A DNA stretch of 57,554 bases, filler included, from Dugesia japonica (Eukaryota), in NCBI GenBank assembly GCA_001938525.1. It is 6 parts of 6 records of this genome, joined end to end, with 100 filler letters (N's around TTAATTAATTAA, not from the genome) between each part and the next. Parts side by side here need not be neighbours in the genome. Positions count along the whole stretch, not along the records: positions 8,345 to 20,788 come from MQRL01621390.1; positions 20,889 to 29,156 come from MQRL01624588.1; 4 more parts are not named here. One strand, 5' to 3'. Both the position numbers and the translations under genes were made by a program. Numbering within the stretch: the first letter of the stretch is position 1; each line of letters begins with the position of its first letter. Below, piece by piece: positions 14,227 to 21,700 of the stretch. The notes under the pieces are model-generated. The model worked only from the letters and a program-made list of their open reading frames with translations. It made no database searches and was not told the DNA's origin.

Positions 14227-16729
14227 AGTAGATAGATAGTGGCACACGGGCACATTTTGGCAATGAGCCAAAATTCGGGCACAATTATTTTTAAGCAGTT
14301 ATCGAGCTCCCTCCCCCTTTCCCCGGGGAGGGGGAGCTAGGAAACACATAGCGCTTAAGCCCCGTTTTTGTACCAATAATTTTTGTGATCGATTTTTTTT
14401 CTAAGATTTTTGGTATTAAAAAATATTTTGATCGGATCAAATTTTGTATTTTATCTGATTAGTTTTTTTTGATCCTGAAGGTGTGTATGTATTTTTAAAT
14501 TTTAAATTTACTTGTGTTTGGGTGGTTAAGGTGCTTTTTAAAAGTAGGTCAAGTTGTGTTTGTGTGTGTGTGTGTGTAAAAGGCTGAAAAAATCGAGGAG
14601 GAGTAGCTGGTGATCTTGGAGATAATTTTTTTTGGATTTTGCAGATTTATTTCTTGTCGGACAAATATTTGGTATATATAATGTCTAAAGGACTTATGAG
14701 TTTGGATGGATAGTTTTCATTACAAGGGTATTGGCACACGGGCACAAAATATGAGTTATCGTGGGAGGTTTTTCTTTTGGTTGAAGTTTTTTATGTTGTT
14801 GATGGAATTTGTTGTTTGATGGCTTGTTGGAGAAGTAATGTGATGGTGAAGATGTTGGTTGTCAAATGTGCTTTTTTTTTATGTTTTGAGGACTACTTTT
14901 TGATTGGTTTATTTTGTAAGTAGTAAAGATGTGTTAAAAAAATTTTTCGTGAGGTGGAGGTTNNNNNNNNNNNNNNNNNNNNNNNNNNNNNNNNNNNNNN
15001 NNNNNNNNNNNNGATGGAATTTGTTGTTTGATGGCTTGTTGGAGAAGTAATGTGATGGTGAAGATGTTGGTTGTCAAATGTGCTTTGTTTTTTATTTTAT
15101 GAGGGCTACTTTTTGATTGGTTTATTTTGTAAGTAGTAAAGATGTGTTAAAAAAATTTTTGTGAGGTGTAGGTTGGTATGTATGGAAAAAGAATTAATAA
15201 GCGGATTTTATAAGATTTTTTTGAAATTTTTCTGTCAAGTCGTGATGACGTGAGATTTTTGAAATAATTAATTTGGTAAAAAATGCTGTATATTGCTTAA
15301 TTTGATGAATGTAATGAAAGTAATATCATTTTTGAATTTTTGATGTATTTTTGGTTATTTTTTCGGTATTTTGATCGGGGAAGTGTTGTTTTGTAAGATT
15401 TTCGACTGTAGAAGAGGGGAGTCTTGATATATTTTAAGATATTATTACAAGATATGGGCAGTTTTGATATTTTTTAACATATTATTACAAGAAATTTATG
15501 CATGCCATGGGCATTCTTGATATTATTTTAAGATTTTATCACAAGATATCAACAGTCTTGATATTATTTAAGATATTATTTAAGATATTATTACAGGATA
15601 TCGGACAGTCTTGATTAAAGCATTATTGATTATTTCTTTATATTTTACTTTAGATGGTTCAGTGTTGATATTTATTTTGTAAGACATTGAGGCATTATTG
15701 ATTTAATATAAAAATATTTTTGCTTTAGATGGGCCGGTCTTGTTGTTTTGCAAGGAATGAACAGTTAAAATTCATATGTACGTGATTTTCAGTGTATCGT
15801 TGTTGCATCTGAGTGGCATACCTATTGCATTTATTTAAAAAAATTCAAAATGGTGGCTATATTGAATTTTAAAAATTCTCAGACTTGTGATTTTCAGTGT
15901 ATGTGTGTTGCAGCTGAAATGCTTTTTTAGTTACATTTATGAAAATATATCTATCAAAAAACCACAAAGAAGCCTTTGTGATATTTACATGTTAAAATAT
16001 ATCTGTCAAAAAACTTTACAGAGGGGAGTCTTTGCGATATTTACATGAATAAATATTCAAATTAAAACTTTTCATTACAAAATGATAAAAAACATAGAAC
16101 TTTATTCAAAAACATATTACTAGTGTTAATTTTCTATTAAGAAAAATCTCATTACAGTTGCAATTGTTAATATAAAATATCATTACCGATGCAATTTTTA
16201 AAAAAAAATCAAAATACCGTTGCAATTTTAAATAAAAAATCTCATTACCGATGTAATTTTTAATACAAAATATCATTACCGATGCAATTTTTAATAGAAA
16301 ATCTCTTTAGTTTTACAATTTTTAATAAAAAATCTCATTANNNNNNNNNNNNNNNNNNNNNNNNNNNNNNNNNNNNNNNNNNNNNNNNNNAATTTTTAAT
16401 AGAAAATCTCTTTAGTTTTACAATTTTTAATAAAAAATCTCATTAGCGATGTAATTTTCCATTGTAAAAAAAACATTGACAATGCAATTTGCCAAAAAAA
16501 ACATATTGGTGATGCATTGTTCTTATAAAGATCATATTGGTGATACAATTTGTCTATAAAAAACAAATTACTAGTGACAATATTTCTATTTAAAAACATA
16601 TTGGTGATGTAGGGTTTCTATAATAAACACATATGTAGTGGCAATTTTCCATACAAAATGATAAAAACATAGAAACTTCCCATATAGCTAATAAGCCTAT
16701 ATAAAAAAGACTTATAAGTAAATATTTTG

Positions 16730-18765: not shown

Positions 18766-21700
18766 ATACATACATACTCGTTATTTGTTAGTTTTTATTG
18801 GTCATTAAATGTTTTAAAGGAAATGAATGGTTATTATTATTAATTTATATGATTGGATGTAATTTGTTTAAAGTAATAGGATTTGTTATCTAAATTACAC
18901 ATGAACATGGTGCGAGCATGCAATGTGCATGACATGCACATCCATTTTGCATACACATTGAATGGTGACCTCTCATTACACGGTTGATATGTAAATAATA
19001 TATGGTTGATATGTAAATAATACATGATCGTTATGTAAATAGTAATACAAGGTGACTATTAAATTATGAAAATATTTTCTTATAAGTTTTTTATATAGTC
19101 TTATTAGGTGTATATGGAAAAGGTCTATGTTTTTATCATTTTGTTTTCAGAAATGTTCTCAATCAATGTTTTTTTTATTAAAAAATGGCAACACTAATGT
19201 TACTTTTGATTAATAATTGCAACACTAATGATACTTTTTATTTAAAATTGCATCACTAATGATACTTTTATTTAAAATTGCGTCACTAATGTTTTTATGA
19301 AACAAGTTCTGTTTTGATCATCTTGTAAAGAAAAGCTTTAATTTGAATATTGTATAATGCAAAATCACACAGACTCCCCTCTTTAAAGTTTTTTAGAGAT
19401 ATTTTTTATCATGTAAATATCACACGGACTCCCCTCTTTGGTTATTTTTAAACTTAATATTTTTTTATTATGTAAATATCACAAAAACTTCCTTCTTTGA
19501 AAATTTTTTTGGATATATATATTTTCATAAATGCAACTCAGAAACATTACAGTTACAACACACAACACTAAAAATCACATGCCAGGGAATTTTTTATGAT
19601 TAAATGCAATAAGTATGCGATCCAGACGCAACTCAGATACAACACTTTTACACTGAAAATCACAGGTTTGAGAATTTTTAATAAATTGCTAACCAAATAA
19701 AACGTCTTTAAAACTCAACATAGCCGCCATTTTGATTTTTTTAAAATGCAATAGAATTGCAACTCAGTTGCAACTCAGATGCAACACACATAAATTAAAA
19801 ATTACGTGTCTATGAATTTTAGACTGTCTCATACTTTGCAAAATATCAAGTCTGTCTCATCACATGCTAAATATAGAGGCTCCCATGTTAAATATAGTGG
19901 CTCCTTATTCAAACTTTCAAGACTGTTCATACCATGCAAAATACCAAGACTGCCCGATATCTTGTAATAACATCATAAAAAATATCAACTCTGCTCATAC
20001 CATGCATAAATATCTTGTAATAATATCTTAAAAAATATCAAGACTGGCCATAACATGGATAAATTTATTGTAATAATATCTTTAAAAAAATATCAAGACT
20101 CCCCAATACATGCATTAATTTCTTGTAATATTATCTTAAAAAATATCAAGAATGCCCATATCTTGTAATTATATCTTAAAAAAATATCAAGACTGCCCAT
20201 AACATGCATAAATTTCTTGTAATATTATCTTAAAAAATATCAAGACTGCCCATACTTTGTAATAATATGTTAAAAACTATCAAGACTGCCCATAGAATGC
20301 ATATATTTCTTGAAAAATATCAAGACTGCCCATAACATGCATTAAAATCTTGAAATAATATCTTAAAAAATATCAAGNNNNNNNNNNNNNNNNNNNAATA
20401 TCTTAAAAAATATCAAGATTGCCCATCATATGCAAAATATAGAGTCTCTGCATGCAAAATATCAAGTCTATCCCATCTCTTACATAAAAAAGTAATTAAA
20501 TTAAATTTAATTTAATTTAACTAATTTGCAATAAAAGATTTCCCCCCATTGTATCGAAAAATTACCTTTTTCCAATTTCTCGCCAAAACAATTTTTTTTA
20601 AATTTCCCGCCAAAATAAATTTTTTTGAATTTCCCGCCCAAATAAATTTTTTAAATTTCCTGCCAAAAATATTTTTTTTTAAATTTCCCGCAAAAAGATT
20701 TCAAAAATATCAAAACTCCCCTCTTCTACAGTCGAAAATCTTACAAAACAACACTTCCCCGATCAAAATACCGAAAAAATAACCAAAANNNNNNNNNNNN
20801 NNNNNNNNNNNNNNNNNNNNNNNNNNNNNNNNTTAATTAATTAANNNNNNNNNNNNNNNNNNNNNNNNNNNNNNNNNNNNNNNNNNNNTCATGATAATAA
20901 GAGTGTATCCATAAAGGAAAACAATTATTTTTGTAGATGAAAGAGTGGGTAAAATACATTATTAAAACCTTGAATAAATTATATTTAGATGAAATAATTA
21001 ATTTGAACATAAAATATTTTATACATAAGATATATAGAGATTACTAACAATTTTGAGAGAAAATTGAGTTATTTTAAATTTCAAAGGGGTTCGATCCCAA
21101 ACCTTCTGTTGATAGCGAAAATGTAAAGTTGGTGTGCGACCAATGGAATTTCGATTTGACCAAATCATTTGATTGAATAATTGTCGTATGAAATTTTAGT
21201 TAATAAATATTTTATTGGATGATACTTGTAAAGTCAATTTTGAGTATGTTAAAATATTATTGGTTGATGCGATAAATTTTTGAAAATTGTTTAGTCTATA
21301 TGTATGTGTGCACAGAAAGCACTATATAATTGAATGCATTTTTGTAAAAACTCAGATTATTTATCGTTCAGAATTTTTGTGAAGAATTTTCGTGAAGAAT
21401 TTTGTTAAGAGTTTTGATTAGAGTTTTGTTGAAAATTTGTGATCAGAGTTTGACTAGAATTTTTGATTAGAGTTGGTGCGATTTGATTAGAAATATTGAA
21501 GAAAGATATTGTCAGTTTGTTAAATTAATAAAAGTTTATTTGAAGATTTTATTCAATTTACGGTAATTATTATTTATTTGAAAGAATTAAATTGACAGAG
21601 ACGCAACCTATTTATCAGAGTCAGATATTAAATTGAAAGTAGAGCTCAAGTGTCGTATATAGCCAGACATATGTATGGGATAATAGGTTTGAATGTGTAT

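Follow-up and report, generated by a model that had tools for sequence, protein, structure and literature searches.

Structure of the element

The element occupies positions 14227-20788 of the window, the whole 57,554-nucleotide stretch of Dugesia japonica DNA that was analyzed (Table 1). As the earlier note described, a satellite and a small gene with a TATA region lie between inverted arms. The satellite has a 41/42-bp unit, the gene is a 104-aa ORF, and its TATA box reads TATATAAA.

Table 1. Coordinates of the element, its flanks and its relatives within the window
Feature	Position	Strand	Remarks
Candidate target site duplication (TSD), left half	14221-14226	+	cccgat, from sequence; no right flank in window
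Left terminal inverted repeat	14227-15422	+	starts AGTAGATAGATAGT; ~980 bp without overlap at 14963 gap
Assembly branch, two near-identical terminal-repeat versions	14963-15174		50-N gap plus second version of 14801-14962
Inner arm, gene-less end	15423-16863	+	40/94-bp and 31-bp tandem repeats
41/42-bp satellite, expanded	16864 to ~18195	+	27 unit cores (pattern count)
Presumed deletion junction	18195-18280		within one contig (16391-20377); similarity to longer copy stops near 18279
Poly(A)-signal-like AATAAA	18354-18359	-	19 nt past ORF stop; kept in second copy
Intact 104-aa ORF	18379-18693	-	two 22-aa N-terminal repeats, conserved core, basic stretch, C-terminal transmembrane anchor
TATA box TATATAAA	18745-18752	-	51 nt upstream of ORF; kept in second copy
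Inner arm, gene-bearing end	18960-20714	-	short satellite; 31-bp, 59-bp and 40/53/94-bp repeats
Right terminal repeat, visible 74-bp stub	20715-20788	-	identical to 15349-15422
Artificial scaffold spacer	20789-20888		44 N, 12-base stop linker, 44 N
Third arm copy, truncated	38801-40097	+	gene-bearing-end type
Related, older Polinton end, other scaffold	55339-57554	+	terminus 55339, shortened arm; cut by window end
Second small-gene copy	56488-56802	+	stop at codon 29
A32-type ATPase	57001-57552	-	convergent to second gene copy; one in-frame stop

Polinton termini begin with AG, and the TSDs are 5-8 bp, typically 6 bp. The terminus at 14227 is of the AGTAG type, and the terminal motif with up to two mismatches was matched six times against 0.63 expected, three of the six matches being exact. 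The scaffold ends at 20788, and the right terminus and the TSD partner lie beyond the visible sequence. The gap at 20789 had been taken as part of the locus, but it is a 100-bp spacer between unrelated scaffolds of a kind that occurs five times in the window. The sequence from 20889 onward was rejected as a right flank because this spacer precedes it. Two further termini on the minus strand lie near the element at 14117 and 13330; the pair formed by 14117 (minus) and 14227 (plus) was considered as a circle junction and rejected, as only ~20 bp are common to both.

Three internal gaps are overlaps with no DNA missing (162 bp with six differences, 55 bp exact at 16341 and 21 bp exact), and their removal gives a visible length of ~6.2 kb. 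At the first gap the second version matches 14801-14962 at 157 of 161 aligned bases, with the first 74 exact; given the six differences in the overlap, 14227-14962 on the outer left may derive from a different source copy than the contig that follows it. The satellite, the junction, the gene and both inner arms are in the same contig. Inverted similarity pairs 15349-16741 with 19056-20788. Arms of about 2.5 kb had been proposed; the pairing extends over ~1.5 kb of the left arm and 1.8 kb of the right. The larger figure is an extrapolation since the outer ~0.9 kb on the left has no visible partner. Terminal inverted repeats of Polintons are reported to measure 100-1500 bp (10.1101/2023.08.22.554363), a range to be found at both ends; here the left repeat is ~980 bp and the right is assembled for 74 bp. 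The gene-bearing arm contains about three of the 41/42-bp units and the longer copy has one, located between its gene and the ATPase. A 27-bp array at 20567-20696 is specific to the gene-bearing end.

An autonomous Polinton/Maverick encodes pPolB and a retroviral-like integrase, and the morphogenetic genes are the ATPase, protease and capsids. No ORF or remnant of pPolB or integrase was found in 14227-20788, which also contains no ATPase, protease or capsid gene. Searches of the element by tblastn with three ATPase relatives and by blastn with core regions taken from the window itself detected no Polinton core remnants, and Rfam gave 0 matches in 11000-20788. Three ORFs of at least 60 aa are present, of which the two other than the small gene (67 and 61 aa) fall within the arms and match nothing in Pfam.

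The arms are opposite end types of one Polinton subfamily

The relatives elsewhere in the window establish the identity of the ends. The left repeat shares 71% identity with 55400-55845, and 71-79% with the corresponding region of the copies at 38801 and 55339. The stretch 55847-56897, located next to a PF04665-type ATPase, has 75% identity to segment 18279-19291, and the small gene occurs there a second time in matching arm context (75% over 1085 bp). The ATPase of this longer copy has 46 relatives at E<=1e-5, of which 36 are annotated PF04665, and the best identities are 69-71%. Scaffold 1-8244 encodes a DNA_pol_B_2 polymerase (E 5e-10) as well as an ATPase of the PF04665-type (A32-type) family; other pieces of this scaffold whose motifs suggest capsid-, protease- and chromodomain-like products gave no Pfam matches. 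As the ends are homologous to those of an element with Polinton core genes, the element is most likely Polinton-derived. The proposal of a coreless Polinton derivative is supported, and the element type would be a Polinton, a Maverick/adintovirus-type endogenous element.

The terminal repeat is the same at 74 of 74 positions in the left and right arms, compared to 60 of 74 with the copy at 38801, and the other five arm pairs have longest exact matches of 18-35 bp. The assembler overlap length is likewise 74 bp, a value found exactly at three of 32 real contig ends and exceeded at none. The 74-bp match was rejected for this reason as a measure of copy age, and indicates instead that both arms enter the same repeat. 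Within the inner arms, the right arm matches the 38801 copy at 124 of 142 positions (87%), whereas the left arm matches the right at 76 of 135 (56%) and the 38801 copy at 78 of 135 (58%). Similarly, the right arm and the 55339 copy agree at 128 of 159 positions (80%) versus 70% and 69% in comparisons with the left arm. The arms are opposite, different end types of one Polinton subfamily, and the small gene belongs to one of these ends. The identical terminal repeats and the closer relationship of the right inner arm to the other copies favor one internally deleted element over two facing elements. The greater divergence of the inner arms noted previously is real, but the reading of two facing elements is weakened because the divergence fits two ends of a single element.

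We consider it probable that the locus is one Polinton that lost its core, the deletion extending from the 3' flank of the end-proximal gene to the satellite of the far arm, with the small gene left behind by virtue of its position. A one-off chimera, in which two neighboring copies of a young subfamily, one contributing a gene-less and the other a gene-bearing end, were fused by a genomic deletion or pieces of different copies were mis-scaffolded at the 14963 branch, and which would have no matching TSD, is unlikely. The two versions of the terminal repeat that meet at the 14963 gap, the clustering of Polinton ends that includes the termini at 14117 and 13330, and the chance that the 74-bp match is a collapsed repeat node are in its favor. 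However, a chimera requires two opposite end types of one subfamily to lie in correct orientation within a few kb, and the inverted inner arms and the junction are in one contig.

The small gene and its product

The small gene is a resident end-proximal Polinton gene and not captured cargo as suggested in the earlier note, because its second copy occupies the equivalent end of the longer Polinton at 55339-57554, adjoining an A32-type ATPase. This ATPase neighbor is absent from the 14227-20788 element. The intact ORF had also been contrasted with decayed core genes. The ORF is indeed intact, but the contrast mixes different elements since the decayed cores are on other scaffolds or copies, and the second gene copy is itself decayed, as is the ATPase next to it. 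In simulations a neutral ORF survived with a frequency of 0.47-0.93 at 0.5-2% divergence and of 0.05-0.35 at 8% divergence. Thus, the intactness of the ORF needs no selection and is likely due to neutral survival. The two gene copies yield a dN/dS ratio of 0.52 (p 0.04), meaning that the gene experienced some constraint in the full-element lineage. Upstream DNA is conserved at 110 of 128 positions (86%) and the coding part at 260 of 312 (83%). The claims that the gene is retained by selection or that the shell is mobile are unsupported, as are trans mobility, host manipulation or an addiction role.

The N-terminal repeats of the ORF arise from a 66-bp duplication in which 48 of 66 bases are alike, and the predicted transmembrane anchor spans residues 86-102. 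Judged by sequence, the product belongs to an unannotated family of putative tail-anchored proteins of ~80 aa: a representative search without length limit returned 13 matches, all of 78-112 aa. In 15 of 15 members the most hydrophobic 17-residue window is within 10 residues of the C-terminus, with mean hydropathy of 1.5-2.7, a single C-terminal hydrophobic segment with none at the N-terminus being the pattern predicted for a tail anchor. Residues G40 and R67 are invariant. We infer that the relatives (P0001-P0014) are Polinton genes.

Pfam searches produced no match for the ORF at 0.01, and at E<=1 the 14 members matched 19 families, each in one member only. For the small protein PHROGs returned weak unrelated rows only and a PDB profile search 0 matches. 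The ESM Atlas gave no usable match for the ORF, and the P0007 scores (0.82-0.85) are within chance. A GTDB scan reduced 136 pattern matches to one locus, an 18-residue match in a bacterial contig that was rejected as chance. AlphaFold2 predicted helices only, with uninformative pTM values of 0.24 (104 aa) and 0.31 (82-aa core). Structure searches were likewise uninformative (BFVD, 0 at E<=0.001; PDB Foldseek, 0; VIA-align, best Z of 5.8 to generic long helices). No fold or family backing for a protein function emerged from the Pfam, PHROGs, PDB, Foldseek and BFVD searches. The gene may encode a Pol II-expressed, tail-anchored accessory protein that would be inserted post-translationally in the ER or outer mitochondrial membrane, and whose amphipathic cytosolic helix might bind a host or viral partner in a viral phase of the element.

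The gene had been described as BH3-like. A BH3 motif is defined by a core of Leu (HP2) and Asp, usually with Gly preceding the Asp (PMC9171138). The protein resembles BH3-only proteins and viral BH3/Bcl-2 mimics in its predicted amphipathic Ala-Asp helix and C-terminal membrane anchor, but differs in having Ile for the usual Leu and Ala for Gly, in the lack of motif conservation and in the absence of a Pfam or PDB link. A relaxed pattern of four hydrophobic positions and an acidic hotspot does occur twice in the ORF, as one duplicated unit, and once in P0001, but neither LxxxGD nor LxxxxD is present. In the family Asp is found in four of 15 members, a small residue before it in four of 15 and both in two of 15; Leu and Asp in BH3 register are found in 0 of 15.

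It is very unlikely that the element is a multi-copy satellite, copied and integrated by a helper Polinton, whose gene was selected as a BH3 helix mimic or addiction toxin. In its favor, the ORF is intact together with its TATA box and poly(A) signal, the Ile...Ala-Asp form of the ORF repeats recurs in the validated BH3 of TPT1 (PMC9171138), insect Polintons without polB are reported to have remained mobile (10.1101/2025.02.07.637071) and Bcl2 and IAP homologues are known from adintoviruses (PMC8502044). Both N-terminal repeats, which are predicted to be helical, fit four hydrophobic positions plus Ala-Asp, as did 42 of 5000 shuffles, but the pattern was the best of four tried and shuffling destroys the amphipathicity of any such helix. 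Moreover, the invariant residues of the family are G40 and R67, a stop interrupts the second gene copy, upstream DNA matches the coding part in its degree of conservation, and no antidote or other second credible gene accompanies the ORF, which speaks against the addiction gene envisaged earlier. In the window the deletion junction is found once and the small gene twice. We attach very little credence to a helper-amplified, defective-interfering-like mini-Polinton family in which the lineage-specific, duplicated Ile-x-x-Ile/Leu-Ala-Asp helices of the tail-anchored protein would be a new BH3 mimic acting on host Bcl-2 proteins, so that a satellite of an endogenous DNA virus persists by controlling cell death in its host. 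Binding of Bcl-2 proteins, if it occurred as well, would make the protein a viral mimic in the death pathway; a literature search joining Polinton with BH3 found none such.

The junction and comparison with known elements

The outcome of the probable core deletion would be a near-palindrome of ~7 kb with the order terminal repeat, inner arm, satellite, gene, inner arm and terminal repeat. For Polintons a single-stranded racket intermediate with paired arms has been proposed, and in this state the deletion may have occurred through template switching or recombination, potentially aided by satellite units present in each arm as well as downstream of the gene. Survival of the gene would be due to its location outside the deleted core and to the youth of the copy, and the shell may retain the cis ends needed by a helper. 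A weak inverted satellite remnant lies near 18226-18243 (17 of 18 bases; two of 200 shuffles were as good), and homology to the longer copy at the junction is weak, with 10 bp, a length equalled in 129 of 500 shuffles. It is highly improbable that the element is truly full length and that short reads were mis-joined through the satellite: the assembly is fragmented with several overlap gaps and 1.3 kb of tandem repeat adjoins the junction, but the latter is in 60-80 bp of non-tandem sequence within one contig, and the satellite units are 65-86% alike, far below the apparent 74-bp exact overlap of the assembler.

The ~1-kb terminal inverted repeat, AG-type terminus and short terminal repeats are shared with Polinton/Maverick elements of adintovirus type, in which a short terminal tandem repeat has been described (PMC4196379), and the relatives in the window carry pPolB and an A32-type ATPase. 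In contrast, the element is ~7 kb compared to 13-25 kb and is without polymerase, integrase, capsid, protease and ATPase. In the name Polinton-1N1_DR, N1 denotes a non-autonomous element. Polinton-1N1_DR is named in PMC9341505. Non-autonomous copies are reportedly lacking among Anolis Polintons in the account of PMC3014272. As in non-autonomous or defective Polintons, the ends are kept, replication genes are absent and movement would be possible only in trans; the element differs in that the entire core was lost, yet one intact accessory ORF was retained.

A non-core gene beside one terminal repeat is also reported for nematode Mavericks (10.1101/2022.07.12.499685), the cargo of nematode elements including WASP proteases and KRMA kinases, as well as msft-1/tlpr-1. 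That cargo is described as host-derived, intron-bearing and GC-rich, whereas the small gene is intronless, AT-rich and single, with no similarity to the cargo and no known host homologue. The locus gives no sign of a nematode host. The toxin-antidote precedent cited for nematode Mavericks is overstated: according to the same source a Maverick carried the protease ancestral to the toxin, but the toxin-antidote pair sits in a MULE transposon (10.1101/2022.07.12.499685).

Should the junction recur in many copies with matching TSDs, the element would provide a clear example of trans mobilization of a coreless Polinton, and the sequences it retains would be the minimum needed for replication and integration. 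As a probable product of core deletion it is an ordinary deletion derivative. It exposes the unannotated family of predicted ~80-aa tail-anchored proteins as a Polinton accessory gene in this window, and marks the cis ends of a Polinton family, with a homogenized ~1-kb repeat, end-specific inner arms and a repeated 41/42-bp unit.

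Architecture of the element

The Polinton-like element at the end of scaffold 8345-20788 probably is a coreless Polinton deletion derivative which retains an end-proximal accessory gene. Its left terminus is of the AGTAG type, and occurrence of this motif is not due to chance: six matches were detected at ≤2 mismatches compared to 0.63 expected, and 0 of 100 shuffles reached six. Self-comparison revealed inverted arms as the earlier note had described, but pairing extends over only about 1.5 kb on the left and 1.8 kb on the right instead of 2.5 kb. The arms enclose a 41/42-bp satellite and a single 104-codon ORF whose TATA box and poly(A) signal also are kept in a second gene copy; no Polinton core-gene remnant was found inside the element. 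The visible length is about 6.2 kb, a complete right repeat would bring the element to about 7.1 kb, and three internal N gaps are overlaps of flanking pieces.

Coordinates of the element, related copies and neighboring repeats
Feature	Position	Strand	Remark
Element	14227-20788		to scaffold end
Left arm, paired	15349-16741		
Deletion junction	about 18195-18280		
Small gene	18379-18693	minus	104 codons
Right arm, paired	19056-20788		
Second gene copy	56488-56802		in element starting at 55339
Single satellite unit	56904-56929		also in both arms
Further Polinton-type termini	14071-14117; 13284-13330	minus	87.5% alike over 48 bp
~150-bp repeats	12377-12528; 12851-13003		near further termini
Spacer between back-to-back termini	14118-14225		109 bp
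Decayed, rearranged Polinton	1-7300		
Fragmented pPolB therein		plus	DNA_pol_B_2, E 5e-10
ATPase remnant therein	2160-2276	minus	
Gypsy-type remnant	50317-55049		zinc knuckle, RT, RNase H, integrase
More Gypsy remnants	31232-32243; 44971-49195		
Tandem array	38336-38700		16-bp period, 95% matches
Tandem array	37089-37631		16-bp period, 80% matches

Over its final 74 bases the scaffold reproduces 15349-15422 exactly in reverse complement; beyond this segment the arms diverge sharply. As exact 74-base repeats, and none longer, occur at 3 of 32 real contig ends, this length is an assembly signature and a lower bound only: the right arm enters the same repeat as the left, which says nothing on age. 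A truncated third arm (the 38801 copy) agrees with 60/74 bases of this segment. In the inner arms, identity of the right arm reaches 87% with the 38801 copy vs. 56% with the left arm, and 80% with the longer copy at 55339 vs. 70% with the left arm. Local alignments confirmed the grouping with the 38801 copy; with the 55339 copy the scores were tied (111 vs. 110), and the right/55339 match was longer (164 vs. 91 columns). Because the inner-arm grouping is the reverse of that in the terminal repeat, the arms are two end types predating the split of these copies, both apparently leading into a terminal repeat of about 980 bp that has been homogenised. Two end types sharing one repeat favor one internally deleted element over the two facing elements raised earlier as an alternative from the diverged inner arms. 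A doubt about a single element lies at the 14963 gap, where two repeat versions that overlap (157/161 bases) may be left and right repeats, two alleles, or two copies; a chimera made from two copies is the strongest competitor, albeit unlikely.

Origin and retention of the small gene

A family profile search of the window recovered two gene copies, the second in the 55339 element, whose terminus is of the AGTAG type as well and which is 75% identical to 18279-19291 over 1085 bp. For the convergent ORF that follows, 46/85 candidates were relatives at E ≤ 1e-5, 36 of them annotated Pox_A32 (best identity 69–71%); scaffold 1-8244 also holds a member of this ATPase family and a DNA_pol_B_2 polymerase. 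As the second copy sits beside a Pox_A32-type ATPase in a longer Polinton-type element, the small gene is a resident end-proximal Polinton gene, not cargo as previously supposed. The deletion would have removed the stretch beyond its 3′ flank. A template switch in a paired racket intermediate, a structure proposed for Polintons (PMC4196379), could have been responsible, because the longer copy also has one satellite unit in the interval from the small gene to the ATPase (24/26 bases; 0/200 shuffles). The junction itself shows little direct homology (10 bp, reached by 129/500 shuffles), and the switch therefore is proposed only as plausible. The satellite unit may serve this Polinton family as a recurring cis-regulatory or protein-binding site.

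Intactness of the small ORF tells little. Codon 29 of the second copy is a stop, and the neighboring ATPase also carries one, so the gene decays along with the core. Simulated neutral ORF survival was 0.83–0.93, 0.68–0.88, 0.47–0.77, 0.24–0.59 and 0.05–0.35 at 0.5, 1, 2, 4 and 8% divergence, respectively; the two repeat versions differ by about 2.5%, the sole hint of the element's age, and at that divergence neutral survival is likely. The dN/dS of 0.52 between gene copies (103 codons, p 0.04) indicates that the gene is genuine and that full elements keep it under some constraint; upstream DNA is conserved to the same degree as the coding part (86% vs. 83%). That the element is mobilised in trans and retains the gene by selection, as a BH3 mimic or an addiction gene, is improbable. 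Mis-assembly is marginally less credible still, as the junction lies inside one contig.

From the naming convention, Polinton-1N1_DR presumably is non-autonomous. This zebrafish element appears under that name in PMC9341505, and defective Polintons that are polB-less yet still mobile are reported in 10.1101/2025.02.07.637071. Polinton-type virion genes are described only in animals (PMC8502044), by which the gene set here points to an animal host; there is no sign of a nematode. Mavericks had been credited with toxin-antidote genes, but the nematode pair is located in a MULE and not in a Maverick (10.1101/2022.07.12.499685). Comparison literature includes PMC6431247, 10.1101/2024.01.15.575659, PMC3014272, 10.1101/2023.08.22.554363, PMC12220804, PMC5499653 and PMC11296320. 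A literature search with most subscription journals outside its range found no paper joining "Polinton" and "BH3", and three papers under six names for non-autonomous Polintons.

The small protein

Searches yielded 14 relatives: P0001 (74%) and 13 proteins (P0002-P0014; 24–49%), an unannotated family of 78–96-aa tail-anchored proteins. Relatives align from residue 23 of the ORF onward; residues 1-22 stem from a 66-bp duplication (48/66 bases) that the second copy and P0001 have too. A C-terminal hydrophobic anchor is present in 15/15 members, preceded by a net positive stretch in 11/15, and G40 and R67 are invariant. The best reading is a predicted accessory protein that is tail-anchored and interacts through an amphipathic helix. 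Using the BH3 definition of PMC9171138, a relaxed pattern (four hydrophobic residues plus Ala-Asp), the best of four tried, fits both 22-residue repeats of the ORF (42/5000 shuffles), which are predicted to be helical and share the Ile/Ala-Asp form of the TPT1 BH3 (PMC9171138). Against this, the Leu-Asp core is absent from the ORF and only 2/15 members match; the same source cautions that such patterns have little predictive value. Pfam, PHROG, PDB and structural searches with the protein gave no link. If the protein mimics BH3 at all, this property would have to be a gain specific to its own lineage.

Neighboring repeats

The 100-bp spacer recurs at 8245, 20789, 29157, 38701 and 47486, and thus the window is several unplaced scaffolds strung together, not a single locus, from an AT-rich genome; sequence past 20888 comes from unrelated scaffolds. 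The two further termini point away from the element, 109 bp from its left end, and with the ~150-bp repeats suggest an insertion hot spot as well as nested remnants from another family. One frame of the intervening spacer is open (36 aa; no Pfam match), probably by chance or as a piece of another element. Pieces of the decayed Polinton presumably correspond to integrase chromodomain, capsids and protease (no Pfam match). Two ~320-bp repeats, 92% identical and probably LTRs, bracket the Gypsy-type remnant that stops about 290 bp short of the 55339 terminus. The two tandem arrays are unrelated.
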